A DNA stretch of 60,736 nucleotides, the filler included, from Globobulimina sp. (lineage: Eukaryota), in the NCBI GenBank assembly GCA_003354225.1. It is 10 parts of 10 records of this genome, joined end to end, with 100 filler letters (N's around TTAATTAATTAA, not from the genome) between each part and the next. Parts side by side here need not be neighbours in the genome. Positions count along the whole stretch, not along the records: positions 54,771 to 60,736 come from PIVH01000390.1; 9 more parts are not named here. One strand, 5' to 3'. The notes beneath the pieces were generated by a model. It searched no databases. It was given only the letters and a program-made list of their open reading frames with translations, and was not told the origin of the DNA. Shown here one piece after another: positions 299-60,736 of the stretch (position 1 is its first letter; every line of letters starts with the position of its first letter). Both the position numbers and the translations under genes were made by a program.

Positions 299-412
299 GA
301 GCATCCGGTTTTATTGGGGTAAGGTGTAAGCAAACCGTTTCTGGTGACTGATAAAGGTAAAAATAATATAGGTTTGCCTTCGTTTCTCAGAAACAATAAA
401 AATCTGATGCTC
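299..412. mobile_element. Spy-like (PHIS group) MITE, 114 bp, no target-site duplication
   Basis: Termini GAGCATCCGGTTTTATT ... AATAAAAATCTGATGCTC are imperfect inverted repeats. Flanks are GAA|TTT. Exact removal restores the APE reading frame IDLTLISENLKHTKWCILHSLFDPLCSDH. Confidence 0.8.
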
Positions 413-3400: not shown

Positions 3401-3638
3401 CCAGATATTCAAATCAACGCAACCGTCTAATCAATTCGATTCAAATAATATGGAGTGACTTTGGTAATGGAGGCGCATCTATTTAGATGAGCTATTCTAT
3501 CCATATACCATTCGTCGACCTCCTGACATTGAAAAAGAACTAGAAATAATGACTCAAGTTGGAATCTGGAAAAAACTTCTTCAATATGTAAAAGAAACAA
3601 AACGATTCAATTACCTGTACCAATTAATTGATTGGCTG

Positions 3639-5997: not shown

Positions 5998-6097
5998 NNN
6001 NNNNNNNNNNNNNNNNNNNNNNNNNNNNNNNNNNNNNNNNNTTAATTAATTAANNNNNNNNNNNNNNNNNNNNNNNNNNNNNNNNNNNNNNNNNNNN
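5998..6097. other. Artificial contig spacer 1
   Basis: 44 N + TTAATTAATTAA (stops in all six frames) + 44 N. Confidence 0.99.
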
Positions 6098-12090: not shown

Positions 12091-12190
12091 NNNNNNNNNN
12101 NNNNNNNNNNNNNNNNNNNNNNNNNNNNNNNNNNTTAATTAATTAANNNNNNNNNNNNNNNNNNNNNNNNNNNNNNNNNNNNNNNNNNNN
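12091..12190. other. Artificial contig spacer 2
   Basis: Same 100-nt N/TTAATTAATTAA linker. Confidence 0.99.
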
Positions 12191-18417: not shown

Positions 18418-18483
18418 GGTTAGTGTTCTTGGTCTCAGGCTGAAGTTTTATTTAAGTTGTTTTTAAACAAAGCAACAAAAAGC

Positions 18484-21400
18484 ATGGATTTGAATAAGAT
18501 CCAATCAGAATGCTCAAAATGCACTATTCAAATGCAATCTGTACTCTCCGATGTCACTAATTACATTAATGAAAACTTACAAAGTGTACCAAAGGCACAA
18601 AATGAAATCAATGTGAAAATAGCACAATTAAAGGATATGATTTCCAAAATTGAGACACATTTACAAATAATGCCATCGAATGATGAAGAATTTAGTGAAT
18701 TATTAAATCAACTCAATGAAGAAAAAGAAGAAAAAGAAGAAAAAAAAAGCAATGTAACTTGTGATAATAATCATGCATTAAAACATATGACCAACAATGA
18801 CTTAAAAAAAGAGAATATTGCATATGCAAATGGTTATATTTGTGACGTTTGTCGTAAATCAAAAGATTCTTCCTTCGCTGTCTGGCATTGTTCCCAATGC
18901 GGTTATGATTTATGTCCACATTGTTCTGATAAAAAAAGCGGCCGCGGCTCTGACAACCAAATAAAATGCGCGCGAGGACATGAAATAAAATGGGCGCCAA
19001 CCGGATATAAAGGACGATTTTGTTGTGATATATGCAGACAATCTGTAGATGCTAAATCTGCGCATCGTTGTACTATTTGTGGCTATGATCTATGTCAAAA
19101 TTGTTTTGTCAAACAAGGTGGCGAAATAATTCCTGTTGTAAATGAGGAAAAGGCAAAATGTCAAAAAGGACATGAATTAGAATGGGCTCCCACTGGTTAT
19201 TCAGCTGGTTACCGATGTGATATATGTCGTATAGTAAACAGTGCAAAATCTGCCCATCGTTGCAAGATTTGTGGTTATGATTTATGCCAACAATGTTTTA
19301 GCGGAGCAAAATCACCAAATGCACCAACAAAAAGTGCTGCGACAACCTGTGCCAAAGGACATTTATTAAAATGGATGAAAACGGGTTATCGTGGAAATGT
19401 TTTTTATTGCGACATATGTCGTAAATCTGTAACATCCGAATTTGCGCATCGTTGTAGTAGTTGTGGCTATGATCTATGTCAAGAATGTTATGCCAAAAAA
19501 AATAATGCTCAATCTGACGCCTTTCATTTTGAATTAAAAGCCGATGATGATAACAGTGCTATTTCGTGCCATAATAAGCATACACTTTTATTAGTATCGC
19601 ATCCTGAATTAATATCGTTACATGGTTACAATTATGCGGCTGGTTATTTTTGTAATATTTGCAAAACAGAGTATGTAAATGTTGATACTTGGCATTGTAA
19701 AATATGCAGTTATGATATGTGTCTGTCGTGTTACGAACGAGAACATGCAAAGCAGAACGTTGACAATGTTAATAAAGTGCGGAGTGTAGATATCAATAAA
19801 TTGTTACAGGTCCAAATCCGCTGTGCCGAACATCATATTTGTAAATATGCGACAACCGCTGCTATGATCAAAATTAATGTTGGTTATTCAGGCGGTTTTG
19901 GCTGCGATACTTGTAAACAAAACTATAAATGGAACAGCGCAATAAGTGGGGCCTGGCAATGCTCCATTTGCTCATTTGATACTTGTACGAATTGTTTGCA
20001 ATCAGTGCAATGTCAATCTAATGATATAAACGACAAATTTGCATTTAAATTGATGGATTGCATTAAATATCAGCAATATTATACATTTAGTGATGTTATA
20101 AAAATATTGACGGATAAAGCAAACAAAACTAAATTTAATATCAATTATATTATTAATAAATATTGTGATAAAGATTCAAAATTAAATGTCTTGGTCTGTG
20201 CAGTGCGCCATTCTGCATTGTCTGAAATGAAAGTCGTGTTTGCAAAATGTGCGGGTGCTGATTTAAACGGTGCTGCATTGAATGGCACCACTCCGATTAT
20301 CCAAGCTGCAGAAAATGACAGTGTCGAAATGGTAGAATGGTTATTAAGTAACGGGGCATCGCCAAACTCCATTAACAATTATGATGAAACCGCAATGTGG
20401 CATGCCTGTGCTCAAGGAAACGTTGACATTATTAAATTATTAATAAAATATGCGTTCGATTGGAACAAATTTATTAACAAAGCAAGCAGCAATGCCATGG
20501 GTGCTACCCCATTGCTTATGTGTTGCTTAAATGGAAACGTGTCATGTTTACGATATTTATTTTCAATCCAAGGCAATTATAACACCGCCATTGATGTTCA
20601 TGCTAAAGCGGTGAAAAACCAAAATGCGTTGATTTTGTCGACACTCAGTAACTACACTCAAGTCGTACAGTTTTTATTTGCAAAGACAAGGTTTTTAACG
20701 GGAAAACCGAGCATAATTAATCAACAGCGGAGCTCTGACCATAATGCGCCAGTTCATTTAGCTGCGCGATGGAATAATGTGCAAATATTGCAATTGTTGA
20801 AAAACAATGGTGCTGACATGACATTGATTGGGGAAAACAATTTGAACGCATTGTTAATCGCGTCAGCTCTCAATAAAGCATTGGCAGTGAAATATTTGAT
20901 TGAGTCGAAAAGTATCGATCCCAATTTCCAGGAGAAAGCCAATGGCATCACGGCATTAAATGCTTCGTTGGATCATCCCAACGGATTTGCTGTGTGTAAG
21001 ATTTTATGCTCCTATGATAATATAAAAATATTGGAACACAAACGGCAGAAATTTGACGTGTTGGACGTTGCGTGCATGAAAGGACGGGTTAAATGTTTAC
21101 AATTATTGCTGACCACATTAATTAAAAAAAATAATATCTCCAATTGGGAAGAATTCATCACATCGAAAATATTGACATCGGATAAAACGCAGTCATTTGA
21201 TATTGATGGCGAAAATCACTAAACAGGCCGCAATGAAGCATTTCTTAGAGAATTTGACAAAGAATGCATTAGCAAACGAAAATTTTGGTCTATTGACTGC
21301 AATGTGTGACTATGACGCGGGCACTGCGGCAAAAAAGAAAATCGAAATTGGGGAATCGGTATTATCTAAAAACGAAACGATTGCACATGTTTTAGTCGAT

Positions 21401-24366: not shown

Positions 24367-25937
24367 ATCCATGCGTAGTTACTGGCGATTATTTTTTACA
24401 TTGAAATCAGGCATCAAATTGACCCCAATGTTCATAGCAATCCTTTATAAATCACTGGCTCGATCCAGAATAGAATATGGTTTAACCCATTACTTCCCAT
24501 ACGATTCCAACAAAATACTAAAAACCATCCAAAATAAGTTCCTCCGCTTAGCAATCACATGCAGATTAGACTCACAATGATGAATACCATACGCTTAACA
24601 AAACGTACCAAGCACTACAAAAGTATAAACAAACAATACAGTCACACAAATATCGTAAACAAAATAAAAAGAAAGTAAACAAATTCTCAAACCTAAACAA
24701 AAATGCATTAATAATTGCTACTAAATTCTGCCAAAACGATGATGCCATAAAAGCCCTTACACAGAATTTTGATAAAATGAATAAAAACCAAATATCTTCA
24801 TCCCCTGCATATAACTTAAAAACTCTCCCATCCAATTTTGAGGTGTTATTATCACCGCAGGAACCTACAACCCCCACGAACCCAGCAATTACCATTGCAT
24901 TCACCGATGGATCATGCGACCCAAACCCAGGAAGAGGAGGAGCTGCAATATATATACCACCCCAACCATCGCATAATACACCCTATAAAGAAGTATATTA
25001 TTTTAAAATCCCTGTCACCATAACAACAGCTGAAATAGAGGCGGTGCACATGATAATTAATTACATACTGAATATCCCCAACAATCCACAAATCCATTTC
25101 AAAATATATATTGATAACCAACCTGCCCTCCAATTTATAAATGGACAGAACTATCCAAGATACAATGAGACCAAACTATTAATTGAAAATATATTTATTA
25201 AATTGACTCAAATCTTCGATTAAAATCCCCAAATATCTATATATCATTTATAAAAATAAAATCGCATAATAATAATAAATTTAATGACGAAGTCGATCGA
25301 TTAGCTAATTTTGCAGCAAAGCATGCAAAATATGACCAGAATCTGTCCAATCAAATCTCTTATAACACCACAATTACACAAATGCATAAACAAATAACAT
25401 ACCGTTGGAGCAAAAATTAGATGAATAGAAACACAAAAAGTCACCAAGATAGCTATAAAATGTTCCAAATCAATCCCAAACTCCACAATAAACTCAATAA
25501 AATAATTAAACTATTAAATAAAGATGAAGCATATCTCGGGACATATCGAATTAAATGCTTTCTTATTCAAACATAAATTTAAAAATACGGATGGCCAACT
25601 AATGGAATCTCCCAATTGTACGAATTGCCAATTAAATAAAGAAGAAACAATCTATCACTATTTCATAAAATGTCCAGCTTACTCCCATCAACGACATCGA
25701 ATGACACAGCAATTCCATAATATTTGGGATGGCTTTAATAATGGGAATAGATTCAGCATAAACGAACTATTCTATCCATATACTATCCGCAAACCTCCAG
25801 ACATTGAGAAGGAGTTGGACTTAGTGACTCAAACAAAAATTTGGAAAAACCTCCTTCAATACGTAAAAGAGACAAAAAGATTTAACTGCCTATACCAAGT
25901 AAACCTAATGAATTTATCTCCGATCATCTCGGATTAA
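24367..25937 (+). mobile_element. Second, diverged copy of LINE family A (3' part: connector, RNase H, Zn knuckle), degenerate
   Basis: Collinear with 2000-3620 (ARSRIEYGLTHYFPYDSN, FTDGSCDPNPG, KIPVTITTAEIEA, LLQYVKETKRFN). Has deletions near 24577 and 25530 and several stops. Confidence 0.92.
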
Positions 25938-36728: not shown

Positions 36729-38728
36729 ATGATGAAGCATTCCCAAGTGATCACAGGAGGACCCTCATATTCCCGTGATCTGTGGGACGCGCACGGTGTG
36801 AAAATGATATCCGATCGCGTCGACAAAGCCAAAAAATCAATGAAGCACTTACGTGATTTCTTCCAAGACGCAGCCAATATGTCCTTCCGCAACGCTCAAA
36901 CCACGCACAAACTGCAAACTATGAACATCGGCGCCTCAGAATTCGGCACCTTGAAATTTGTGCAAGATAGATACTGTGAATTGATAGGTACACTACACCG
37001 CCCTCCATAGTCCATACCCTCTGCATTGCGAACCATCGCAAAATCGCAACCAAAAAAATAAAAACATCAGAAACCATATCGAAAAATGAAGAAATTTTAG
37101 GCTCTAAAATCCGCACTCAATGTTACCAAAAGCTGTCTGACCAAATCAACCGAATCCAACGCGTGAACACCAAATTATTGTCCGACTTAAGCCAATGGCA
37201 GAAATCGCTGGAACGCGAACAAAAAAAGCTACGCAAAGCCAAGCAGGCGTACGACGAGAAGAAGCGGCAATGTTTGGCAGTGATCAAGGCGCTCAAAATC
37301 GAAAAAGAGCACTTGAACTCCATCAAGCACAGCCAATCGCAGTTGAACAAAGCGCCGCAGATCGAGTCCAATATCATGTCATTGCAGCAAAAATGCAAAC
37401 ATATGCAAGCTCAAAGCAGGGAGCAGTTGGACAATTACATCCGCGCTGTGAGCATTTACCGCGGCTTCCGCCTCAAATACGACTCGTCTACGGGCGCTTT
37501 GTTGGATCAGTTGGAGCAAACCGAGTGCGATCGGGCCGCGATGTTGCACCGCATTTTGAAGCTCTACTTGGAAATCCAGCAGGTTATGGTCCAGCAGTCC
37601 TTGCGCAACATCGACACGATCAGCAAACACATCGCCAACATCGACGCGCATTCCGACAACATGGTCTTTGTCGAAAAGTGCCGCTCTGCGCAGAAAAAGC
37701 CTGCGTTGCCAGACCCGAAGTTCCATCCCGACGACGAAGATGACGGCACGGTGAGCTTTCGCAGCGATGAGGGCAACATTGAGGAGTCTGCAGAGGTGAA
37801 GTTTTGGTGCGAAAAATGGAGGTTGGTGGTGGGCAAAATCCTGCAGCGCGACATTGAATTGGTGAGTCCAAAGAGTCTGAACTCGAACAAGGATGGCCAT
37901 GAAAGCAAGGAGAAGGAGCAGGAGAATGAGAATGAGAATGGAGGCCATTCGGACGAAGCTTTTGCTTTCATTCAGCTGACGGACGAGGAATACGCGTCGT
38001 TGCGAGAGAAATGTCTGTCAAGTTTGGAGAGCTCGCACGGCCGCATCGCATTCAGTTTGATTATAAATCGGCAGCGGAACACCGAGTACGGCCTAGAACT
38101 GCAACGCCAGCAATTTATTGGCTTGGTGGAGTTAATCACTTTGTTTTTCGACGCCATTCAGAAGTCGGAGCCGTTGGACATTAAGCCGGCGAAGTTGGTG
38201 ATGATTATGTCGCAGAGTCTGTACATTCGGAAGGCGACGGTGTTGGACATGTTGACTGATTCGGAGAGCATTGAGATGAAGGAAGGCGGCAATGGCGGCT
38301 ACAATAAGTTGTTCATTCAGGATCGGATCAAGAATCACTGCATTTGGAAGAACGACAAGTTTTGGAAAGAGGCGTATTGCGACAGTGTGCAGCAAGAGAT
38401 ATTGAAGTATCCGGCCATCAAGAAATGGCACAGCGAGGAGGAACAGAGCGAGGCCGAACGGAGGGAGGAACAGATCATATTCAGTCAGTTGGCGGCGTGG
38501 ACTCACAATATGAAGGAATTTGGCACTGAGAATGAGAAAATTGTAAAGTTTTTGGATTCTCGAGGCTTGAAAGCGGAGCAAGTGGAGGTGTTGAAGGCGA
38601 CTTTGCAGTTAGATGAGGCGAAGGAGAACGAAAAGGAAAAGGAAAAGGACGGCAATAAGAATGACGAGAACAGGTTGGACAATGCGACTGCTTCAATGTC
38701 GCCTGAATCGTCCACTGGTCTGCCATGA
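36729..38728 (+). CDS. F-BAR (FCH) domain plus SBF2-like domain protein; intron 36988-37100
   Basis: YSRDLWD..G..MI..R......L.DFF, EFGTL and LDQLEQ.E.DR (F-BAR). GR..F...IN.QR, AKLVM.MSQS.Y, IKNH.IW.N..FW...Y..SV..E and IIFSQL....NM..FG (SBF2-like). A GTACAC...TTTTAG intron joins the exons in frame. Confidence 0.8.
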
Positions 38729-42775: not shown

Positions 42776-45700
42776 TCAAGTAATTCCTTCTCTATTTTCA
42801 GGAACTTGTTGATTACGTCTGTCGATTTCTTCATCTTTATTTCGTATGTCGATAGTTGGTTGGGATTCTTCGCCATCATCATCATTGTGGTTGATTTGGT
42901 GTATCGTATTGTCATTTATAACTTGATTGATGATTTCGTCTATGTGAATTAGAATATCGTTATTATTATTGATTACTTCATATATTTTTATTTCTGGTCT
43001 ATTTTTATATAGGATTTTGATTATATTTCCTGTTGAGTTTATAATATGTCCATGTACATTATCGTTAAGTAACCATATAGTTGAATTTTCAATAAATTTA
43101 TTGGTTGATTTTGGTATTGAATTTGATTTCGTTTCACCATCTAAAACCTGTGGTAGCATACCCCATAAATTCTTTAGAGAATCTGAATTTTTCGGTAATT
43201 TGTAGTTATCGGGACATAGCCATAGTAGATGTTCTAGAGATTCGATTTCATTATTGTCACATCTTGAACATATTGTATTACTTCTTTCGTTGAGGAATAG
43301 GGATCCACATTTTGCTTTTAACCAATATTCGGCTCCGGCTTTTAGATTTAGCTTGTAGTTAGTTTTTGGTGTTGTTTTGTTTCTATAATATTTTAATGTT
43401 GTCGAATTTAGCACCATATTTCTATATTTTTCTAGCCATTTTTCGTAAACTATAGTTCTTACTGTAGTTGATAGAGGAATATTGAGATAGTTTATATCGT
43501 ATTTTTCGCAGCATTTTATTGCATGTTGAACCCATGTTATAGTATTTGGATTTTCTCGATATATTGCCAATTGCTCGATTATGACTAATTTGACTATATT
43601 ATTGTCTTCTAGTTTTTGGATATGATTAAAATAGTTTATAGTTCGTTTTTCAGCTTCCATTATCATTGGTATTAGTTCTGTTTCACCGTAAAGTGCTGCT
43701 TGTTGTGTGTGTCTGGGTAGTTTTGCAATCATTCTGATAAATTCTCGTTGTTGGATATCGATTCCAGTGAAAGTGTTGTCGCTAAATGGTATTGCAGCCA
43801 TTCCATGTAGTATTTTCGGGTTAACATAAGTACTCCATATTTTTGATCCATATGTTATAGGTCTTGCTGTTGATGTTGCTGGTCTGTAGCATCTTCCTGC
43901 TTCTTTTCTTGTTTTATCGGATAGGCTAATTTTGTGTTTAGATAAAATGTCCGTTCTGTGTTTACTGATTGTAATCCCTAAATATTTGGCTTCCTTTTCT
44001 TCTTTGATAAATATCGTAGTTTCTTCGTTTTCGGTAATAAACATTGTTCCTAACTTCCATTTTCTATCGTTATCGATTTCTCTTCTTATTGGGATTACTA
44101 GACTTTTTGGGCCGGAAAATTCAATTTTCCATTTTTGTGCGTAGTTACCGACAATTTTTAGTAATTTCGTCATATTGTAATCGGATGAACCAAATAGTAG
44201 CATATCGTCTGCAAAGAAAATTCCTGATATATTTTTATTGATATTGTTTGTTCCTATTGATATTCCAAGGTTTGAATTTTCGATTTCCTTTCCTAAGTCT
44301 GCTATATATAGGTTCCATAATATCGGGGACATCGTACACCCTTGTCGTAATCCTACATTCATTGATAATCGTTCTGTTTTTTGATCTTGAAATTGTAATA
44401 TCGCTCCTGGATTGTGGTAACTACTTTCTATTGCTCTTATTAGTTTATCGGGAAAGCCGTAATCTCGTAATTTCTTCCATAACCCTTCGCGCCAAACTCT
44501 ATCGTATGCTTTACAAATGTCTAATAGTGCTATTGCTGCTCCTGTTGATATTGATAATTGTTTGGCTATTTTTATGGCATGTTGTATTACTAGTATACAG
44601 TCTTCTATCCTTTTATTCGATCGGAATCCATGTTGTATGTAGCCTAATATGTTTTTCTTTTCAGTTATTGTTTCTAGTCTTTTCGTCAATATAGTTAAAT
44701 ATACTTTACAGAGATTACAACCTAGACACAATGTTCTGTAATTTTTGATATCGCTTTTTGATCCTTTTTTATGTAGTAATTTGACTTCTTGTGTTTTACC
44801 TATATCGGGAAAAAATCCTGTATTGTACCATCTATTGAATAAAGTTAATGCCATTTGTTTTGTTTCTTCTGGCCAATTTTTTATAAATTCACTCGGGATA
44901 TTGGTTGTTCCAGCTGATGTTCCATTTTTAAGTCTTTTTATAGATTCGTTTAGTTCTTTGATAGTTATATCGTTATCCATTTCAAGTCTGTCTGATCCTG
45001 TTATTATATTATCTAGTCCTACGCGTTTCATATTATCGTCTGCTTTTGGCCAGAATCCTAAAGTGAATATATTATCCCAAAAGTCGGTTAGATGTATATT
45101 GATATCGTCAGGATTGGTTATCGGTTCTTTATTATCGTTTATTAGTGTGACTGGTTCTTGTATTCCTCTATTGAGATTTTTCATTATGTCATATAGTTGA
45201 TGAAATTTTCGTTTAGGGTTTTTGAGCCATTTCTTGTGGGCTTTCTCAATTCTTGTCATTTCGTTTTTCATTCTAAGATCTCTTTGTTCTTGTATATGAG
45301 CGAATAATGTTTTTAGGTTATCTTGAATATCCCCTTCGTTATGTCGTATTTTCTTTCTTATAGCTGCAATATTGGATTGGATCTTTTTTGCTTTATTTGA
45401 CATTCGTTTTTTTCTGTTTGGTTTTCGGTATCCTATCGTATTTTCGCCAGCTGTTGTCATATTAGTTAACAATGTTTCTATATTTATATTAGTATTATCG
45501 GTTTCTTCAGTTATAGTTTTAAGTTTATCTCTGTAGGCCTTCCAATCAGTATCGTCGTTTATTTGCCATTTATTTTTCTGTTGATTTTGTATTTGGGATA
45601 TATTGCTGTTATGTTGATATATATCGAAAGTGGTATGAATAAAGCAGTGGTCACAACCTCCAGTACCTAATTCGCAGTTGTTTTCGTCAATGTACATTTT

Positions 45701-46477
45701 GTTAATTTTACTTAATTTCGAGTGGAAAAGTAGGTCAAGAATTTGGGGTTTATTGTTTAGTTTTCGTACTCCCCAAGTCCATTTTCCTATCGTGTTGTTA
45801 TCGTTATTGCCAAGATTAAGATCACATGTTTGGATAAATTCTCTGATTATAGTGCCATTATTGTTTATTGTGTCGTGGTTACCTTTAATTCCATAAATAT
45901 CGTTTCCTATATGGCCGTTAAAGTCTCCTACTATGATGATTTCGTAATTATTAAAGCGGCACCAGTTGATATGGGAGATTAGACGTTGATATAACTCTGT
46001 GTTTATCAAATTGGCATCTTCGAAACTTTGATTTTTGAAATATACAGCACATATCGCAGTTGGGCCATTATTTTGACATAATATCCAATTATATAAATTA
46101 CTTACCGAATCGGTTGCGCCATCTATATCTAGTTTGGTCGGTTTCATAGAATTTTTCCCCCATATGCTAATACCCCCCGCATAGTTATCAATTTGTAGTT
46201 TATGGAATCCAATATAGTTATCAAAGTTTTTGATATCTAGTGGACTTTTACATTTGGTTTCAACACAGCAAATAATGTCGGGAGAAAGACAAACAATATT
46301 ATTTAGCATGATATCAACTTTATTATTTATAGAGCATATATTATTATATAGTACAGATATCGACTTATATTTTATTTTGTTTCCGTTTGTACAATATCGT
46401 TTCTCATTGAATTTTATCGTTTTCTTTGGTATATCGGTACAAGTTAAATTATCGATGTCCCCCAATTTCTCCTTATG
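42776..46477 (-). mobile_element. LINE family C ORF2: uninterrupted APE-RT-CCHC frame (~1230 aa), no RNase H
   Basis: PDIICCVETK, GDFNGH, ILDL and CDH (APE). NYRTL, QHGFR, LDICKAYD, GLRQGCTMSP, FFADDM and KYLGI (RT). CSRC....ESLEHLLWLC knuckle. Confidence 0.95.
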
Positions 46478-48603
46478 TCATAATTTATCTTGAGCTATGT
46501 ATCCTCTATCCCACCTATCCCCTTTGCGCATTCCTCTACTACTATTTGCTGATCCACCAAAAGAAGTTATACCTATTGTAGGACCAGTTTGGTCATGATG
46601 TTGTGACCTTAGTGATGTATCTTGAGTTATATATCTTCTGTCCCATCTGTCCCCTTCATATGGTTTTGTTTGATTGCTTGGTATTTTAGCATTTAGCCCA
46701 TATAAACTTCTTACCCAATTAACTTTTTCATCCTCTGATAGGTCTTCATATCGTCGTTTGGCAAAGGTTTTTGGTTGATGTCGATTCATTCCTTCATATC
46801 GTGACTGTTGTTCATACGGTTTCCTCATTGAACTGGATATAGAAGTCGCTGGTGAATATGATGTTCTGATTGTTGATTTGGTCGTTTCAGTTATCGTACG
46901 TTTTTCTAAGGTCGTCATTCGTGCTTCTAGTTTTTCGATTTTTTCGTTCAATCGCTTAATAGTGTTGTGGGAATCTTGAGTGCTCCGGGGACCTATAGCT
47001 TCTGGTTGTTCATGTTGTTTGCCTGAGACAGTATCGTTTATTGACATATATCGTAATGTATTATCGTCTGTCACTTCCGTACTCTCATGTTTATCGTCAT
47101 GGTCAGAAAAACTCGAAATATCGTCAATTTTTATAGTATCTACTTTCTCAGTTGTAGTATCGTTATTTTTGGTTGTATCGGTTATAGTATCGTCAGATTT
47201 ATCAATATCGCTTGTATTTCGATTCTTGACTAATTCAGATATCGATTTCTTTCTTCCAGATTTTGGTGTTTTTTTCCTATCTTTCGGATATTTTACTGAC
47301 GCATTTATTATCGTAGTTGACTCTCTATATTTTCTAGTTTTTCGCTTAATCGACGCACTTTTCCGTTTATTTAATTTGCGCCTGAGTTTTCGTGATAATA
47401 AAAGCTGATTTAAATATAGATTCTCCCATTTTTTATTTCTTAAAATCAATCGCAAATATTGGCTATCATGGTTATCAATATTATCGGTTATTTTGTTTTG
47501 GTGATACTTATTCCCTTCTTGTTTATTGGCTATTTCGAAATCCTTGAAATTTTCCGGTTCCGTAGTTGACACAATCTCTTCGATGCGGTTATGTGAACAG
47601 CGCCCATTGATTACTGTATTGTTCGGAACAATATTGATATTGATTGAATTATTATCGGTTATATAGTTAGATAAATTGATTTTAATTTCGTTATTCGTAT
47701 TGTTACAAGGATCTGATTTATCGTTTTCAGTATTCGTACAAGCATCTAGTTTATCACAGAATTTTTCAGTATTCGTATAGGCATCGAATTTTTCACAAAT
47801 TATAGTATTCGTTGAAGATTCTATAATATCATATGTGGTAGTATTCAAGCTTGAATCTTTTAATTCGGGAGTTATAGTATTTGTAGCCATATCGTAATAT
47901 TCGTGCGATATCGTATTTGAGCTACAGTCAGTATATGTATTTACTAAAGTATTAGTAGCCGAGTTTTTGAGGGGATTTTTTTGTATAGTATTTGTACCGA
48001 CATCAAGTTTTTCGTAATATGGTGTATTCGTATCGGTATTTATCATTACGGCAGCAGGAATGTTAATTTGATTAATAGCACTAATCTGTATAGAGTTAGG
48101 TATATCGACCGTTATTACTGATTCGTTATTTAAAGTTGATAATTCTGATATATCGTCGTCGTTAATATCAATTTTGTCGTTGTCAAATTCTGGTGGTCTA
48201 ATATCATATAATATAGGTAATATTGGCTCATTGTTAGATGTAGTTGGCCCGTCTAGGATATCATATCGTTGTTAATCATATCGGTTTTATCGTCGTTTAA
48301 TAGTTCTGATATAAAATCTGGATCTAAATATTGAGGTGAATATGGTATATTTGATTCTAGGGGTTTTAGTTTTGCAATTTTATCGAATTTTTCCAAGGGT
48401 GATATTTTATCGTGTTTCATAATAACTTTAGTTTTCGATTTCAGATTCGATTTAGAATGTAGATCTGATTGAATGGAAAGGGTTGAATTTCCCTTAATTG
48501 GTTTCTTAATTTCGATTTTTTCCTCTAGTTTTGTTGGTTTTGATTTAAATTTGACACTTCGTTCGGCAATTCTTTGATTTCTAGCTTCAATATCCTTTTG
48601 TGC
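46478..48603 (-). mobile_element. LINE family C ORF1-like region, 5' partial, one frameshift near 48265
   Basis: Long low-complexity frame upstream of ORF2. Contains nine xxxTNT-like repeats, a basic patch, a coiled coil (IKRLNEKIEKLEARMTTLE) and a duplicated GDRWDR.YI.QD motif. Confidence 0.75.
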
Positions 48604-52517: not shown

Positions 52518-54545
52518 ATGCTTCGGAGTTATACGGTAAGACTACGACTAAATAAGCATTGGAAATTATGCACACAATTACGCTCACTGTCACAGCTACA
52601 ACGCCCGACACCCACCATACATCATAGCAATATACGTTTAATTCAATCAGCACTGCATACTCCGAGATCACCATCGCATAAATCATATTTTAATCCGTTA
52701 CAAATACTCAACAAACGTTCATTTTCACGTTAACTATAAATCTCTCATCCTCTCACATTATCGCATTATCCCACACACAAAAACAAACAATTAAGTGCCT
52801 GAACATGAGATCATCGGATTGCCAGCCTTATCGCCATCAGTCGAAGAGTCAAAAATTGTGGCATGGAAAGCCAAAGAAGGCGATTTTGTCGCTGCAGACA
52901 CCGCCATTGCCTCCGTGCAAACAGACAAAGCGGAACTAGACTGGATGCTGACTGATGATGTATATTTAGCTAAAATACTGTTGCAGCCAGGCGATCAAGT
53001 ACCAGTTGGTACGCCTGCCTGCATTTTTGTTGACAGTAAAAAGGATATTGACGCTTTTAAAAATTATTCGCCTGACACACCGTCTGATACTGCGCCACCA
53101 TCACCACCTACACCGCCACCACAGTCTTCTGCAACAGTGGACACATCCAACTGTTACGTACTTAGTACTTACATATACTCCGCGGAACATTCCATATATA
53201 TATATCCTTGCGCTCATTTTATTGCGTAGTGCTTTACTGTTTTTCAACTGTGTTGTTAACCATGTCACCTGTCACCCAAATGTCACGTGTAAACTTGTAC
53301 AGACCCAGAGCATAAAGTGGAAGGTATGCCAGCCTTATCACCAACGGCCGTGGATGGTGCAGTGGTTGAATGGTTGGTGAAAGAGGGCGATATGATAGAG
53401 GAAGGTACGGGTATTGCTGAAATACAAACGGATAAATCCGTTGTAACCTGGACCTCCACGGACGAAGCCTATGTCGCGAAATTATTAGTATCTGTTTCGC
53501 CGGAGACTAAATTGCTTGTAGGCACACCATTGGCTGTATTCGTCGACAACAAGAACGATGTTGCAGCATTTAAAGATTTTGTTGCCGGTACTGCACCATC
53601 TCAATCTGCTGCTGTTGCCACACCAAATGTAGCTGCAGACTCACCACAACCATCCATTCAATTTCGTCACGGCGTACGAGGTTATACTAATATGTTACAT
53701 CCATAGTCCAAACAACAATAAAATGTAATATTTCATACACAGAAACAGATACAGATACTGCAAAGCCAACAGCCAAAGCCGCTGCCACTGCGCCAAGTGG
53801 TGGACGTATATTTGCCTCGCCATATGCCAGGAAGTTGGCCGCTGAAATGGGCATTGCATTGGACAGCATTGCCACCGGCACCGGTGGTAAAGTTGGAATT
53901 GTTGCAGTTGATGTTATTAAAGCATCACAGCAGAAACTCGTAACTGTACCACAACCGGTTGCAATTTCAGGCGATCGCAGTTATGAAGATATTGCGGTGT
54001 CTGCCATGCGAGAGATTATTGGCAAACGGCTCAGTGAATCTAAGTTCAGCAGTCCTCATTTTTATGTGACAATGGAGTGTATGATGGATAGTTTAATACG
54101 AATGCGAGAGGAGATCAATGTGGGTGAAGATAGCAAAATATCTGTCAATGATTTTGTAATCAAAGCTTGTGCTGCGGCCTTGCGAGATACTCCGGATTGC
54201 AATGTCGGATGGATTGTGGATCAGAAAAGTAATAAAACTGTGTTGAGGAAGTATAATTATATCGATATCTCAGTGGCTGTGGCCACGCCCAATGGATTGA
54301 TTACGCCCATTATTAAAGATGCGGACAGGAAATCATTGTCTGAGATATCCGCGGAAATGAAGAGCTTGGCCAAGAAAGCAAAGGATAATAAATTACTGCC
54401 GGAGGAATTTCAAGGCGGCACATTTACAGTGTCGAATATGGGCATGTTTGGTGTGTCTAATTTTACTGCGATTATCAATCCACCGCAGTCGTGCATATTG
54501 GCGGTGGGCGGTACGAAAAAGAAATTAGCGCCGGATTTGAATGTT
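52518..54545 (+). CDS. DLAT: Mitochondrial pyruvate dehydrogenase E2 (two lipoyl domains); introns 52729-52795, 53153-53302 and 53681-53742; C-terminus missing
   Basis: R/S/L-rich presequence. PALSP...QTDK twice, RIFASPYARKLA, MREIIGKRLSESK..PHFY, DISVAVATPNGLITPI and QGGTFTVSNMGMFG..FTAIINPPQSCILAVG. The catalytic DHR motif is not reached. Confidence 0.96.
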
Positions 54546-54670
54546 TCATTGAGCAAATCAGCCATCTTGTTAAAGCTTGGCGTCCCTACGTGAGATTTAT
54601 ACCAAATATCAACCTGATAAAACCCCTCTCTCATATCGCTTGTGCCAAGGTCTGCAACAGCAACGCCTTT

Positions 54671-54770
54671 NNNNNNNNNNNNNNNNNNNNNNNNNNNNNN
54701 NNNNNNNNNNNNNNTTAATTAATTAANNNNNNNNNNNNNNNNNNNNNNNNNNNNNNNNNNNNNNNNNNNN
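54671..54770. other. Artificial contig spacer 9
   Basis: Same linker. Confidence 0.99.
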
Positions 54771-57700
54771 CAAATAATAACACACAATCACCGAGTTATA
54801 AGGAAAATCGTCAAGTTGGAAATCCGTCCGACCCCCCTGAACCATCTGAACCATCTGATGCGGGAAGCGATCAGCGAGCTTATCAGTCGGCGAGACCACA
54901 CAAAATTTAATGAGAATAGGCCGCGTAAACAAACACCATACCGTGAACCCATTATTACAGATAAAACCGTTTTTGTTAAAGAGTCGCGTACACGTTTCGA
55001 TAGTCGTTGTGTAAAACCTGATATGATATTTCATGGTTTGCAACACGAAAATCTAGAAGCGTGGATTGAGGGTGCTCGAATTGTATGTAAATTACAAGGT
55101 GATTATAAATATTTTGAAGATTATTTGTTTCTTTTTTTGGGAGGAGCACCGCGGCTATTATACCATCAATTAAATTCACAAATGGGTGACAGTTTTCGAC
55201 CCAGAATGGTTTTGCGCGAATTACGGAACAGATACGGTAATGCGTCTCGCGATCGCGGAGCTTTAGCGGATGCCTATGACAACTTACAACAAGGTAATCG
55301 GTCGCTTTTTGAATTTCTCAATGTGTTTCAAGTTTATTTTGACCGCGCTTACCCACCCGATGAATTTATGTACAATCGAGATGAACGTATGTGCCGCGAA
55401 TTTCAGCGAAAAATAAATCGGGAAGAAGTTAGGACAGTGCAAACATTTTTGTCCGGCATGAATCAACCCGAGTGGTCTTGTATGGCACGGCGCATTGTTA
55501 ATACTGTACAATCAAATCCAGAAGTAGAGGCAGTGGCACCGAGACATACAGTAGGACTTCATGCTATTGTTGAAGAAGACGCAGCGACAGGCGAAGCACA
55601 TACACTTTTTCCGACCAAAACATGTGCTAAACCGATAGTACAGACAAGCAGTGGATTTTTCGAACGAGATCACACAGTACCAAGTTTGGCTATTCGCACA
55701 GAAAAAGATTTTGATGTTATTGATTCGGAAGATGCCAAAAAGGTTGTCAAATTCATTTGGGACAATTCAAAAGCAGGACATCCGGTCACAGTTCAAGAAA
55801 TGACTGCCAAGTTGAAACCATTGAGTATTGGTGACATTCACATTATTATATCTTATTGTTTAGATGGCAGTTTAGGCAATGCGGCTCGACATATTGGTAT
55901 GCAAACAATGCCGAATTTTCCCAATGTTTTCAAACCGGAAATTTGTGAAGTCGAAAAAAATCGGGTTTTGAAAATCGCTTTGTCCATTGGCAATACTGTT
56001 CAACAAGCAGCCAACAACAATCGACGTTATCAGAATCAACGACCACCTTATGGAGGACAGCGACGCAATTTTGGTCAAAATCGACGAGCCGGTCCCCCAG
56101 GTCCTGGTTATATTTGTCATACATGTGGAAAGTCAGGCCATTGGAGACAAAATTGTCCAGACAAAGATAAGGCAGAACAAGGGCCATCAAATAGAATGTC
56201 AACATCTCATGTTTTGGTAAATTCACTCGTTGGGAGTGTTGAGGATTTAACACCTGTGGACATTGATAATATTGAATGGGAATACACAATTGGAAGTGAA
56301 GATTGTCCAGGTATGTTAGGTCCTATTGAATATCAAGATTATATTTACCAATTTGCAATGGCTACACATCAGTCATATCCATTACATGATTTTGACAAAT
56401 ACAAATTACCAGAGTTTCTGATACCAGGCGACAATCATCCCGACACGCGTTTCAAAGTCGAATATGACAGTTGGGTTCATTATTCTAATCGGAGAGAACC
56501 AGAAGAATATGACTGGTTAACACCCACACTTGAACGCACGCGCAGATTAAGTCAGGAGCGCATGTTAGCTAATCTTTCAAATGACAGTAATGTAGGGACT
56601 AGTACTGCCAATGAAGCAATCGAACCTATTGATAATTTTGGGGTTTGTTTTGCCAATATATCTGGCGAACCAATGGGTGCAACAGGTAGTGTACATACAG
56701 ATGTTATAAACGATGATAAGTTGAATCAATGTGTTGTTATTAATGATCATCCTGTATGGGTACCTAAACCAGTTGAACCCCTTCCAACTGCTGTAACCCC
56801 ACATCGATCTGAATCTACTGGTTTGATTGAAGCCGCCAATACCGAAAGGGCGACCAATGAATTAGTATCCCCTACATTAGAACCACCAATTTTACCGGCG
56901 AATCGATTAGATGCTGATAATGTGAACGCGACTGTGTTGACCGTTTTGCCAAAAGAGGAGGTAACAGACCCAAAATCAGTAATTTTGTTACAACCAATGG
57001 AATTGGCACTTTATTTGCTTTGTCAACGCATTAGGATATGTCAGCTCGCTGCATTGGCTGACACTGGGTCGGTGCTTAGTATTGCGCAAGTGTCTGTTTG
57101 TAAATTTGCTGGTATTAAAGTGACTAGATTGCGCAGCTGTCATCATCATACAATGTCTGGTTTCGGCGGTAACATTAAAATTCTGGGTAAAGTTATCATG
57201 TCTTTCGCCATTGGAGAATGCACGTTCGAACAAACAGTTCATGTGGTACCGGATGACAAAAGATTGCCATTAGTCATTTTTGGTCTCGATTGGTTAGAAC
57301 GCCATGATGTTCAAATTGATTTTGTGAATGCAAAGTTGAATTTCTGTGGACAAGAAGTACCATTGGGAAAGCCACGTCAAAAATGTACATCGCGCTGTCT
57401 CGCTGTAAGTAATGGAGCAATGGATGAATTGGACCAGGAATCCAGCGATGAAGAATCCGACTATTTGTCACCAAAAGATTTGAATAACATCAACCGGATT
57501 AAGAACGGCGCTAAGAATAGACATGTACGGAAGACTCGGGCTACATCAAGTACACAAACAGATGGCAACTTAGAAGCAGATTCTGCTTTGCGTCAACAAT
57601 TGAAAGAGACTGTGGCGTCAATAACTGCAATTGCACTGGCATTACCTGGGAAATGGCCTCAATTTACTCCAGAATCAAGAGAGTATTATCAACGAACACT

Positions 57701-59336
57701 GGGTACTATGTTGGAAGCATTATCAGTGGCAGAGATACCAATAGCCGGTAATCGAATCATCGATATTGGGGCATTGTTAAGACGTAATCGAAGACACATA
57801 GTACCAACAGTGGAGGTACCCGAAGAACAACAAAGGGGAAGAGCAGAAGCACGTCCAATCAGAAGACAGTTGCTGGCAGACATTGGGCATGAAGCTGGAG
57901 GACCATTGACCGGAGCAGCAGCTTGGACAAATGTGGCCGGAGAGACGGTAAGTGATACAATTGAAAATTATATTGCTGAAATTACATCAGAAGAACAAGG
58001 GTTTACACCACCACAAGCACAAGGTGGATTATTCGGCGAAATAGAACGAACAAGGAGCAGAAGAGAAGCTCAAATGCAACGTTATGTACAACGTCAAGCG
58101 GACCGTCAAGCCCGGGAAGCTCAATCAGTGACATCATTGGCAACAACAAAGGCACGAGATAATGTTGCTAGACGAAGGAGTCTTGGTCCTGATCGGCGTA
58201 ATTGTCATTTTACTCCGGGGCCAACTTATGTTTGTCATACCTGCAATATTCCAGGTCATTGGCGTGAAGACTGTCCAAAACTTCCAGTAGTGGAGTCAAG
58301 TGATGATGAAGTACCAGAATTACAAGAGGTACCAGAGATACCAGTTCCATCATACGAGACCATACGTGACATTCGTCGTGGAATAAATCGGAGAGAGCAT
58401 TTTGAAAGTCAGGGTTATCAAATTACCGACGAACAAGCATGGCCAGATGTTCCTATGTCCATAGTGCGAGAATTCCAAAGAAGAGCACTTTCAATGAAGA
58501 AGCCAAATCAACAAGTACAAGGTAGTGCACAATCAGCAGAAACAGATGGTACTGCAGCATCATGGCCAGCCATTGCATTCTGTCGTGATCCAAACGCATG
58601 GATATGTGATACATGCAATCAGTACAAACCATGCCCATTCAATACTAAATTTGGAAATGATGATGCATCAAGTCTATCACCATCAGAAGTTCAAGCAATT
58701 GGACCAGAAGGAAAAACTTTGGGCGAGATTGCAGATCAATTAACAGATCCAGTATTGGCTCAACGAGCACGACGATGTTTGGACTTGACACAACTATGTT
58801 GTGATCAATGTCGAAGTGGCGAACCATGTGAAGTGCAAAGACCAGTTGGAACACAGAACATAACACGTCAAGTTATGCGTGAACTCAATCGAGGTGCAAA
58901 TCAGAAACGGCATTACGAAAATATAGGAACACCATTGACTGATGCACAAGCTTGGCCGAGAATTCCAATGACATTGGTACAAGAATATTTCCGACGGCAC
59001 AACGGAAAAGATTTAGGTCGATACTATCAAATATATGGGAACATACAAGATGATGGAACCATTTCAATCGTAGACCCACCACAAGGTCCGGTTTCTACTG
59101 ACGTACATGGAAAAACAACATCAATTGCTACACTCCAATTTCGTGCCCAGTGTACAGATTATTCCCAACCTTGTTGTGATCAATGTAAAAGAGGTGAACC
59201 ATGCGTAGTTAGTCTAGGCAGTCAACAGTATGTCCAATGGAAACGATTTGAACAAGAACGACAACTGCGACGGGATTGTGAAGAAAACAAGAGCAATTCA
59301 CAAGTTCCCAATGGTCACCGACCAAATAATTATTGA
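54771..59336 (+). mobile_element. Ty3/gypsy-like Gag-aspartic protease polyprotein with atypical C-terminal repeats and no RT/IN; 5' partial
   Basis: Capsid-like L.G.P...Y, L..RYG and QGNRSL.EF...F.....RAYP motifs. CHTCGKSGHWRQNC knuckle. Retropepsin ALADTGS...IFGLDWL. Second knuckle CHTCNIPGHWREDC. Stop at 59336. Confidence 0.85.
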
Positions 59337-59676
59337 TTAGTATTACAAATTTTTATTTAGGTTACTAACTAGTTTTTATCAATTTGTGTTATATTGAATT
59401 AATGCATTAGCGTCTTTATTTTTGTTCAGTATTTTTTTCAAAATAATGCATTTGTGTTTCTATTTAGTATTTCGTTTTTAACACATAAAAAATTTTCTGT
59501 TGAAAATTTGTTTGAAATTTTTCTTGTATGAATGTGAATGAATCTGAATGAATGGCGTAGTGCTAAGTTGTGTCACACTGTCAATCAGTGCTATAGTGGA
59601 CATGTCATGATGCGTCACAAACTCCAATTCCATTGACCTACTCTGCAAATATTATACAAATAAACAAAATTAAGTC

Positions 59677-60736
59677 ATGAGTAGTCAGTACAGTCCAATG
59701 GAGTCAATAGCATGGGAATGGGGTCGACACCATTTTTATGTTCTTGGCACTGTGGACTGGGTTACTGATTTTGGGTTACAAATTAGATTTTTTTTTCATC
59801 AAGTTTTTACCAACAAATGCAAATTATGGTTGTTTTCAGAAATTTGGTGGTGGGAATCATTTCAAACCAGGTAAGCTGCACAGCAAGTAATCTAACTCTA
59901 TAATACTGTGTAAGAACCTGGATTACCCAGCGTACTTTGGAGATTTTTCCCCCGGCTGCCACCCACTAATTACATAATGTATTCCATATATAACACAACA
60001 GATTCCTTTACAAAATTCGATTCGGGTATCCCTAATTCAGACTCTCTTGTCTGCGGTAAAGTGTTGCATAGTGGAAGTGCTGATACTGGTACTTGTGTTA
60101 AATGTTCAGTGCAAGGTCATTTAGGTGATACATGTATGGCCACCATGGCTCAACGTTATTATTTGTTAAGTAATCGTAGTGCATTGTTACAAGGTATTGT
60201 GCCAAATAAACTTTTTATGCTTACATTGAATAAAGAACAAATTGATTGGGTAAATAAACATCCTAACGTTGTATCTATTGGCCAAATGAAGACCCCTCGT
60301 GCACCACCTATGAATTTGCCTACAAATCCTTTTGGCAAACCAGTTCGTACTGCAGCAATACAAGCACCAGTAGTGGCCAGGAAGAAAGTTGATAATATTC
60401 CGACATATAATCCGATTCAAACTCACGATCAACTTAAAGCAATCAAAGACAAGCAAGTAAGTAATAAACCTCGTCCACAAATAGACAAGAAAGTAATAAT
60501 TGAAGATCAAATGGAAACGGACGAAGTACAATCAGAAGTATCAGTGCAATCGATTGATGGTTCTACGTCAACAAGTAAACCTGATTCAAGTTCATATCAA
60601 GGAGCAAGAAAGATATTATTGCCATTACCGGTTGCAACATCAGAGCCAATAACGCAATTCCCAGGTTTACAACCAACAAATCCACGATATGACAGCCCAT
60701 TACATCATCCTGGTCGTTCTACATTTGTTGCTAAGC
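59677..60736 (+). CDS. Spliced CCHC zinc-knuckle protein, 3' partial (not in the ORF track)
   Basis: Frame is open from 59915 to 60736 and contains CVKCSVQGHLGDTC. Intron 59871-59914 (GTAAGC..CTAAC..TAAG). Joins ATG 59677 if the T9 run at 59788 is T8. Confidence 0.65.

Follow-up and report, generated by a model that had tools for sequence, protein, structure and literature searches.

A gag-protease reading frame without RT behind its protease, probably from an undescribed multicopy Ty3/gypsy-derived family in a foraminiferan

ORF1 is probably the gag-pro frame of a multicopy retroelement family that has not been described before, derives from Ty3/gypsy, and carries variable appended domains, with RT encoded elsewhere or provided in trans. 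In order, it contains a capsid (CA)-like domain, a second helical domain, an NC-type CCHC knuckle, a long linker, a retropepsin (PR), a conserved post-PR stretch, and a lineage-specific tail of ~490 aa (Table 1). The window, i.e., the whole 60,736-nt stretch that was analyzed, is made up of ten contigs of ~6 kb each, with N spacers between them. The ORF1-bearing contig is the last one (5,966 nt). It is cut at both ends and finishes at the window end, leaving 87 nt before the ORF1 ATG and 1.4 kb after its stop. Since the frame is open upstream of the ATG as far as the first base of the contig (54771/2), the N-terminus of ORF1 may be missing. The features listed in a preliminary description of this DNA (DTG, a second knuckle, two 43-aa repeats, three Cys modules, and no YxDD or integrase motifs) were all found where it had placed them.

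Table 1. Features of the ORF1-bearing contig and of the spacer before it
Feature	Position in the window	Strand	Basis or remark
Artificial contig spacer, N44-TTAATTAATTAA-N44	54671..54770	.	Element's contig begins at 54771
ORF1, 1,492 aa, first ATG to stop	54858..59336	+	GC1>GC2>GC3 periodicity
Capsid (CA)-like helical domain, aa ~45-194	54990..55439	+	AF2 model, VIA-align, sub-threshold Pfam
Second conserved helical domain, aa ~286-379	55713..55994	+	Alignment; tblastn with P0004; model pLDDT 71-85
Knuckle 1, CX2CX4HX4C, zf-CCHC_2 type, NC-like part	56100..56159	+	Pfam, PDB sequence matches, motif
Retropepsin-type protease, aa ~724-836	57027..57365	+	DTG, GFGG flap-like motif, LPLVIFGLDWL motif; HMMER; alignment
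Post-protease region common to P0001, aa ~840-1000	57375..57857	+	Alignment, tblastn
Knuckle 2	58218..58277	+	Pfam; copy of knuckle 1 plus its basic leader
Repeat A1, aa 1167-1209	58356..58484	+	Repeat comparison; AF2 pLDDT 75-84, small three-helix module
Cys module C1, aa 1242-1259	58581..58634	+	Repeat comparison, motif scan
Cys module C2, aa 1307-1326, CX6CC-X2-C-X5-C	58776..58835	+	Direct repeat D1, motif scan
Repeat A2, aa 1338-1380	58869..58997	+	Repeat comparison, AF2 model
Cys module C3, aa 1432-1451, CX6CC-X2-C-X5-C	59151..59210	+	Direct repeat D1, motif scan
AT-rich stretch, ORF1 stop to ORF2 ATG	59337..59976	.	Frame scan
ORF2, 253 aa to contig end, 3' open	59977..60735	+	CX2CX4HX4C motif at 60094-60135

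The CA-like domain was modeled using AF2 and compared with VIA-align. The dArc1 capsid was matched with Z 7.7 (122 aligned, rmsd 6.6) and the copia capsid with Z 6.7, and 13 of the 18 rows falling in this part were retroelement or retroviral capsids. Foldseek analysis of the gag model against PDB gave no match at E ≤ 0.001; among the weaker matches, the capsids of PNMA2, Arc, dArc2, and copia ranked highest. Pfam Retrotrans_gag matched the same part with E 0.005 and 17.5 bits, under the cut-off of 24.1. The predicted fold suggests a capsid-like domain; neither the CA-fold Z scores (5–7.7) nor the Pfam scores for gag and PR are high enough to stand alone. In tblastn, P0004 matched the second helical domain at 41.5% identity over 142 aa (E 1e-30), and the alignment indicated that this domain and the protease are the two best-conserved parts of the ORF1 family. 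Its fold search with VIA-align gave generic helical matches only.

A basic G/R/N/Q-rich stretch precedes knuckle 1. Pfam detected two zf-CCHC_2 knuckles in ORF1 (56.4 bits versus a cut-off of 27). Knuckle 1 matched those of Mpe1 (E 1.5e-5) and RBBP6 (E 1.2e-3), and it is also like retroviral NC. RBBP6 and Mpe1 combine DWNN, zf-CCHC_2, and RING, whereas ORF1 matches the knuckle only, with DWNN and RING absent.

ORF1 has a single DTG, at aa 735 (57060–57068). Pfam Asp_protease gave E 9e-4 and 19.8 bits, under the threshold of 26. HMMER matched the protease to the PR of P0001, P0002, P0003, and P0014, and also to the PR of the RT-bearing P0020 and P0093, which are Ty3-type Pol proteins carrying the domains RVT_1, RNase H, and rve. 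The protease was weakly similar to DDI1-type retropepsins (7d66_B, E 0.004; 3s8i, E 0.95). This similarity to DDI1/SASPase is limited to the RVP region; the context in ORF1 is gag plus knuckle instead, and Pfam found no UBL and no UBA. The capsid-like fold, the sub-threshold Retrotrans_gag match, the protease motifs, and the match to the PR of Ty3-like Pol together bore out the gag-knuckle-protease identity proposed earlier.

No RT was found behind this protease. YxDD, FxDD, and HHCC patterns were all absent from ORF1 in the motif scan, and Pfam detected neither RT nor integrase (rve). When the Pol proteins P0093 and P0020 were compared by tblastn with all frames of the contig, only the protease was matched. 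From the ORF1 stop to 59913, the longest frame was at most 66 aa, indicating that ORF1 does not continue by read-through or frameshift into a pol frame. A pol ORF was looked for downstream of ORF1, and neither the frame scan nor tblastn found one on the 5,966-nt contig. LTR, PBS, and PPT were not identified on the contig either; the longest direct repeat was 44 nt and lay inside the Cys modules. The preliminary description held that RT, RNase H, and integrase had been replaced. Both ends of the 6-kb contig are cut, and there may be a pol ORF past them; this wording goes too far, and the result is that RT does not follow PR.

ORF2 had no assignable family in Pfam, its ESM Atlas maximum of 0.82 was at chance level, and its best E in the PDB sequence search was 0.83. 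A BIR-like match was rejected as chance (E ~1). The ORF2 part at 60144–60342 is multicopy. On another contig, adjacent to this one in the window, a PDH E2 gene was 68–72% identical to proteins of Nonionella, Ammonia, and Elphidium, and judging by this gene the host is probably a foraminiferan.

The distant relative P0001 (1,599 aa) was collinear with ORF1 over ~915–975 aa, up to residue ~1000 (HMMER, E 1e-80). In tblastn, its aa 605–1519 matched nt 54918–57713 with E 6e-124. P0001 ends ~200 aa past PR, with no RT behind. P0014 (2,292 aa) has a knuckle and PR, followed by ~930 aa without Pfam RT; when the gag alignment was compared with P0014 by hhalign, PR alone was matched. P0004 contains CA, knuckle, and second helical domain only. 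Both P0001 and P0014 are extended at the N-terminus by long coiled coils, an unusual feature for Gag. Homologs with RT directly after PR had been named as the sign that this copy is a chimera. RT was not directly behind PR in ORF1, P0001, or P0014, and since these distant relatives also go without it, the arrangement characterizes the family and does not mark this copy as a chimera. Protein searches by word index, run with ORF1 and with an alignment of ORF1, P0001, and P0004, gave zero matches; they missed P0001 and P0004 too, probably through low-complexity crowding. A pattern search for related loci in metagenome contigs yielded one locus from 254 pattern matches (L001), a decayed PR fragment adjoining a LINE in another record. 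The same search gave none in viral contigs and none in prokaryote genome contigs.

Copies of ORF1 were surveyed in the Logan contigs of X1, the one public run containing the contig and probably the source sample. Altogether 144 contigs were placed: 19 at ≥99% identity, 10 at 95–99%, 23 at 90–95%, and 92 under 90%. The summed depth, which is not a copy number and comes from one run of one study, peaked at 35.8 in CA (55169–55367) and 37.7 in PR (56960–57158) and was 19.4 in the tail (58353–58551), with source-like contigs at 4.7–8. Two runs of the same sample, X2 and X3, had no matching contigs. Among 30 variant sites in ORF1, those with the best support in a far longer list, 18 were synonymous and 16 were at third positions (p = 0.019). 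Because 125 of the 144 contigs were <99% identical and 18 of the 30 listed sites were synonymous, ORF1 is marked as belonging to a diverged, constrained multicopy family, not as a single domesticated gene.

The excess of synonymous differences among copies would also suit a host gene family that arose from a gag-PR domesticated as PEG10/RTL1, PNMA, or Arc were, became immobile, expanded by duplication, and gained new N- and C-terminal domains. The long intact ORF1, its host-like GC3 (0.28, similar to that of neighboring AT-rich genes), the negative search for an LTR on the cut contig, and the three long family members with unlike appended N- and C-terminal regions and no RT behind PR point the same way. 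We nevertheless consider this origin unlikely. The share of contigs below 99% identity, together with the 36% of placed X1 sequence that continues into dissimilar sequence, is the usual picture for repeats that are dispersed and in part fragmentary; the decayed fragment adjoins a LINE in another record; and at each end the contig stops within or close to the unit, which is how assemblies behave at repeats. PEG10, RTL1, Arc, and PNMA share the capsid-like fold (dArc1, PNMA2, and Arc were among the best structural matches), and PEG10 and RTL1 are, like ORF1, gag-PR without RT. However, they are single- or low-copy orthologous host loci, whereas the ORF1 family is diverged and multicopy; they have no detectable sequence relationship to ORF1 and no such tail modules. 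X1 contains so many diverged copies that the PEG10-like domesticated gene suggested earlier is a poor fit.

The ~650 post-PR residues of ORF1 hold the second knuckle, two 43-aa repeats, three Cys modules, and a basic stretch. Knuckle 2 was 51% identical to knuckle 1 over 37 aa (aa 1104–1140 versus 400–434, E 4e-12). A1 and A2 shared 44% identity over 43 aa (E 2e-13), a score reached by 0 of 2000 shuffles, and C2 and C3 shared 54% over 28 aa. A weak, degenerate third A-like motif lies at aa ~1013–1024; its score was reached by 2 of 2000 shuffles against A2 and 229 of 2000 against A1. The P0001 tail had no significant similarity to the A repeats. For the last ~490 residues of ORF1, the protein search detected no relative among 1.84 billion representatives, ESM Atlas gave no usable match, and the best E in the PDB sequence search was 1.3. 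These searches and Pfam agree with the earlier observation that the tail repeats match no known family. The AF2 tail model had a mean pLDDT of 45.8, and VIA-align found nothing at Z ≥ 5 with it. The A1 model was weakly SANT/Myb/TetR-HTH-like in VIA-align, with all Z < 5, and serves as a lead only. Such weak leads suggest nucleic-acid binding as the function of the tail. The tail repeats had been called a cargo, a term that is unproven. Because knuckle 2 duplicates the element's own NC knuckle and the first ~190 post-PR residues are conserved in the family, some of the tail, at least, arose within the element and was not captured.

C2 and C3 read CX6CC, a motif known from gamma-type retroviral TM proteins. 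An in-frame env is described in Burro elements (PMC6431247). Both observations would fit a virus-like element of a different type that has integrated, for example one whose C-terminal part is Env-like or a pararetrovirus-like capsid-protease. This is highly improbable. The Env-like reading of CX6CC was rejected because ORF1 has no hydrophobic segment; the best 19-residue Kyte-Doolittle mean was 1.46, inside PR. The motif is triplicated in short modules, a heptad-repeat context was not identified, and viral contigs gave no match.

The tail is real coding sequence, as its codon-position GC indicated (GC1 0.587, GC2 0.478, GC3 0.232). This strong periodicity also argues against an artefact, in which repeat misassembly joined the tail to gag-PR or the frame of a rearranged dead copy stayed open by chance. 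The assembly is highly fragmented, none of the listed Logan contigs spans the whole stretch, and the protein search found no relative of the tail, all of which an artefact would explain. It is still quite improbable, given a 4.5-kb unbroken frame in a ~40% GC contig. Independent Logan contigs with 0–1 differences cover 57654–58268, 58279–58633, and 58875–59422, the added depth at 58353–58551 indicates further tail copies, and the element's own knuckle is reused in the tail.

For a retroelement gag-pro frame, the following route may be proposed. The polyprotein would assemble into a particle via its CA-like domain, the knuckle or knuckles would bind RNA, and a dimeric protease would cleave the polyprotein into pieces. 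The tail would then be freed as an accessory protein, probably nucleic-acid- or metal-binding. RT, RNase H, and IN would come from an ORF of their own in a larger element, past the end of the 6-kb contig, or be provided in trans by another element.

In ORF1 as in Ty3/gypsy elements (Metaviridae), a CA-like domain is followed by a CCHC knuckle and then by a DTG retropepsin that has an hhGxDWL-type motif, and both are multicopy. The nearest RT-bearing relatives of its protease are the PR-RT-RH-IN polyproteins P0093 and P0020. Unlike in these elements, PR is not followed by RT, RNase H, or IN in ORF1 and two distant relatives. ORF1 further differs in an additional conserved helical domain that separates CA from NC, a 260-aa NC–PR linker, a 650-aa post-PR region with a second knuckle and orphan repeats, and a knuckle of the zf-CCHC_2 (RBBP6/Mpe1) type. 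Non-autonomous LTR retrotransposons, with gag with or without PR and RT in trans, share the structural/protease-only coding and the multicopy status; ORF1 is far larger, has novel domains, and is not a deletion derivative.

Among giant gypsy-like elements, plant Ogre has a spliced region that separates gag-pro from RT. The planarian Burro/GYPSM1 elements are a precedent for extra domains within a retroelement polyprotein, with unrelated added domains, several CCHC knuckles, and coiled-coil segments (PMC6431247), in one giant ORF of Gag ... PR-RT-RH-IN plus BIR, MATH, ankyrin, and env-like domains. Burro/GYPSM1 and Ogre are enlarged by extra domains or accessory ORFs, as is the ORF1 family. Burro keeps PR-RT-RH-IN in its giant ORF, whereas ORF1 stops without RT. 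None of the Burro domains (BIR, MATH, ankyrin, env-like) was found by Pfam on the ORF1 contig, which had no sequence similarity to the named ones. The hosts of Burro and Ogre are planarian and plant, and that of ORF1 is a protist.

In the full-text literature, no description of the ORF1 family was found, nor one of foraminiferal LTR elements in the portions of texts seen, PMC13746701 among them. For foraminifera and the rest of Rhizaria, mobile elements seem to have gone essentially uncharacterized. A constrained gag-PR family with no RT behind PR and with variable added domains widens the range of retroelement polyprotein architectures past Burro and Ogre into protists, and its two small repeat modules without detectable relatives are candidate new folds. 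A bolder reading, which we hold only tentatively and think unlikely, is an RT-less, Ty3/gypsy-derived capsid-plus-protease lineage in Foraminifera and perhaps other protists. It would be a constrained multicopy lineage that swaps N- and C-terminal modules and either parasitizes the RT of other elements or is a host capsid/protease toolkit, with a tail built here from a duplicated NC knuckle, HTH-like three-helix repeats, and CX6CC-type Cys modules. These tail modules would represent new folds that bind nucleic acid or metal. Should the element truly have no RT, this would be a clear capsid/protease-only selfish or domesticated family outside animals.

ORF1, a gag-protease frame with an orphan tail, lies on the last of ten contigs, which measured 5,966-5,997 nt and were arranged by descending length. 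As the window is a concatenation of contigs, features on either side of a spacer are physically unlinked. Both ends of the ORF1 contig are cuts, so claims of missing element parts are confined to its 5,966 bases. The ORF1 frame stayed open upstream as far as the first base of the contig. Pfam identified two zf-CCHC_2 knuckles in ORF1 (56.4 bits, cut-off 27) and, below its cut-off, an aspartic protease (aa 724-821, E 9e-4); it returned neither RT nor RNase H nor integrase. Pattern checks found a single DTG and no YxDD, FxDD or HHCC in ORF1. Two Ty3-like Pol proteins bearing RVT_1, RNase H and rve (P0093 and P0020) were searched against the contig with tblastn, and in all frames only the protease matched. 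All three analyses agreed with the preliminary description that no RT or integrase follows the DTG protease, and every coordinate in it was correct, with the features present at their positions. Frameshifting or read-through into pol was absent, because the longest frame in 59337-59913 did not exceed 66 aa.

Coordinates of features in the window
Feature	Position	Strand	Description
Contig joints	5998-6097, 12091-12190, ... 54671-54770		N44-TTAATTAATTAA-N44 spacers
ORF1 contig	54771-60736		last of ten
ORF1	54858-59336	+	ATG 54858, stop 59334-59336; 1,492 aa
DTG	57060		aa 735 of ORF1
Downstream of ORF1	59337-59913		AT-rich; frames <= 66 aa
Loose contig ends	59706, 60115, 60274		run X1
ORF2	from 59977		ATG 59977, open to contig end
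ORF2, motif and repeated stretch	60094-60342	+	CX2CX4HX4C motif, then ~65-aa stretch
PDH E2 gene	52945-54593	+	preceding contig, towards its end; three exons: two lipoyl-domain exons and the catalytic domain
LINE-type ORF	42776-48271	-	by eye
LINE-type ORF	408-5378	+	by eye
LINE-type ORF	24570-25223	+	by eye; clearly related to 1992-3044
ORF	1992-3044		by eye; clearly related to 24570-25223
ORF of high GC3	36980-38728	+	overlapped by long frames 37141-37743 (+) and 37379-38017 (-)
932-aa ORF	18424-21222	+	~seven Cys/His-rich modules (ZZ-type-like by eye), then ankyrin-like repeats

Residues 40-400 were modeled using AlphaFold2 with a three-sequence alignment. The mean pLDDT was 58, with two confident regions at 71-89. 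Foldseek gave no match to this model at E<=0.001; the weak rows heading its list were capsids (PNMA2, Arc, dArc2 and copia). In an exhaustive VIA-align search, the first domain matched the dArc1 capsid (Z 7.7, 122 aligned, rmsd 6.6; a further dArc1 row, Z 6.7) and a copia capsid (Z 6.7, 71 aligned, rmsd 2.7). PNMA2, MLV CA-CTD, HERV-K Gag, Arc CTD, Ty3 CA-NTD, a Ty1 Gag CA-CTD and FIV CA followed at Z 5.0-5.8. These capsids made up 13 of the 18 rows falling on this domain; each Z lies in the range that VIA-align itself rates as unreliable on its own, and the agreement among rows carries the weight. Scanned alone, the capsid (CA)-like segment matched Retrotrans_gag at E 0.005 (17.5 bits, under the cut-off of 24.1). 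The protease contained DTG, a GFGG flap-like motif and LPLVIFGLDWL, and HMMER matched it to the protease (PR) of RT-bearing Ty3-type polyproteins. The knuckles were nearer to that of Mpe1/RBBP6 (E 1.5e-5 and 1.2e-3) than to retroviral nucleocapsid knuckles (E 0.08-0.4). The N-terminal two thirds of ORF1 can be soundly assigned as capsid, knuckle and retropepsin, bearing out the gag-protease reading: the knuckles are the strong line, and several weak lines point to the capsid fold and protease.

An exhaustive HMMER search with aa 293-1492 against 1.84 billion cluster representatives returned 101 hits at E<=0.001, mostly knuckle-only, and few real relatives. P0001 (1,599 aa; HMMER E 1e-80, tblastn E 6e-124) was collinear with ORF1 over the CA-like domain, domain 2 (a second conserved helical domain), knuckle, linker and PR, and stayed so for ~190 residues behind PR, where it terminated. 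Its N-terminal extension of 640 aa was low-complexity and coiled-coil. In P0004 (730 aa), which contained CA, domain 2 and a knuckle, the knuckle (aa 537-554) lay between the CA-like domain and domain 2 (aa ~600-700), whereas in ORF1 and P0001 it follows domain 2. The modules have changed order within the family. P0002, P0102 and P0003 were PR fragments, the last with the post-PR motif. P0014 (2,292 aa), tied to the family by hhalign through PR alone, had a coiled-coil N-terminus, knuckle and PR, followed by ~930 residues without a Pfam RT. Homologues with RT directly behind PR would have spoken against the preliminary description; P0001 and P0014 lacked it. Three long members therefore lack RT behind PR, and the pre-Gag and post-PR regions are variable.

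The internal repeats of ORF1 proved real by alignment. The knuckles with their basic leaders shared 51% identity over 37 aa (E 4e-12), and the two A repeats 44% over 43 aa (E 2e-13), a score reached in 0 of 2,000 shuffles. Cys modules C2 and C3 shared 54% over 28 aa; C1 was more distant. Codon-position GC (GC1 0.587, GC2 0.478, GC3 0.232) showed the tail to be genuine coding sequence. Residues ~840-1000 were conserved in the family, and ~1000-1492 were orphan; HMMER found no match beyond aa ~1160. The tail had been described as cargo. Knuckle 2, basic leader included, duplicates knuckle 1, so at least this piece arose within the element, not by capture. Pfam scans of separate pieces gave chance-level rows only (B-box E 0.065, Pam3_gp59 E 0.061), and PDB sequence and ESM Atlas searches gave no match; by these and HMMER, the repeats matched no known family. 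The single-sequence AF2 model of the tail was poor (mean pLDDT 45.8). A1 was predicted as a three-helix module (pLDDT 75-84), as was A2 (~60). The modeled A1 resembled SANT/Myb domains and TetR-type HTH heads (all Z 3.7-4.6), which may serve as a lead only. C2 and C3 follow CX6CC-X2-C-X5-C; since ORF1 lacks any hydrophobic segment, we rejected an Env-TM-like interpretation.

The ORF1 contig occurred in only one public run (X1; share 0.60), probably the source sample, and in no run recorded as RNA. Logan contigs aligned at >=80% identity numbered 144: 19 at >=99%, 10 at 95-99%, 23 at 90-95% and 92 below 90%; 36% of the aligned sequence ran on into unlike sequence. Summed depth was 35.8 for CA, 37.7 for PR, 34.6 for part of ORF2 (60144-60342) and 5.8-19.4 for the tail, against 4.7-8 for near-identical contigs, although this is one run and contig depth is not copy number. 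At least part of the tail is therefore present in further copies. Among the 40 best-supported variant sites (there are 512 more), a biased sample, 30 lay in ORF1; 18 of these were synonymous and 16 fell on the third base of a codon (binomial p 0.019). Depth, divergence and variants are the hallmarks of a diverged repeat family under coding constraint. The sole metagenome-collection relative, L001, was a decayed, stop-riddled PR fragment (L001 2-85) at a contig edge, directly followed by a LINE-like ORF (L001 190-3540, +; 1,116 aa). Elsewhere in the window, long ORFs read like non-LTR retrotransposons and include stretches resembling endonuclease/RT and RNase H.

ORF2 contained one CX2CX4HX4C motif followed by low-complexity sequence, and Pfam, PDB and Atlas gave no assignment. 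Loose contig ends suggest a separate repeat unit beginning near 59700. ORF2 may belong to another repeat, as its conserved part was more repeated in X1 than the ORF1 tail. The best matches of the PDH E2 gene were from Foraminifera: a cluster with an Ammonia sp. member (72% identity), followed by Nonionella stella (70%), Elphidium margaritaceum (68%) and Reticulomyxa filosa (58%). GC3 of ORF1 (0.28) was akin to that of other AT-rich window genes (0.24-0.35). From these matches and the similar GC3, we infer across contigs that the host of the element is probably a foraminiferan. One ORF was compositionally unlike its neighbours (GC3 0.67 vs 0.23-0.45 in all other window ORFs measured).

In Ogre, gag-pro is separated from RT by a spliced region. 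ORF1 resembles Ty3/gypsy in Gag-PR content and order, but on the available sequence RT and IN are absent and no LTR was identified, so it was not filed as a complete element. The literature describes planarian Burro/GYPSM1, whose enlarged polyproteins include domains of foreign origin, additional knuckles and coiled-coil segments, and Ogre with extra ORFs (PMC6431247). Burro keeps PR-RT-RH-IN in the same ORF, whereas ORF1 lacks RT. PEG10, RTL1, PNMA and Arc have the capsid fold and RT-less state in common with ORF1, but those are low-copy host loci, unlike the multicopy ORF1 family. The preliminary description, a capsid-forming element or domesticated gene, stood as observation and only partly as interpretation. 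We favor ORF1 as probably the gag-pro frame of a Ty3/gypsy-derived, multicopy family that is undescribed so far and has a foraminiferan host, with RT unfused behind PR and variable domains appended. Its terminal 490 residues form a set of orphan modules, derived in part from internal duplication. A domesticated gene family seems unlikely, an artefact very unlikely, and another virus-like origin most improbable. The main value of the finding lies in tail modules matching no family and in an unexplored host group.
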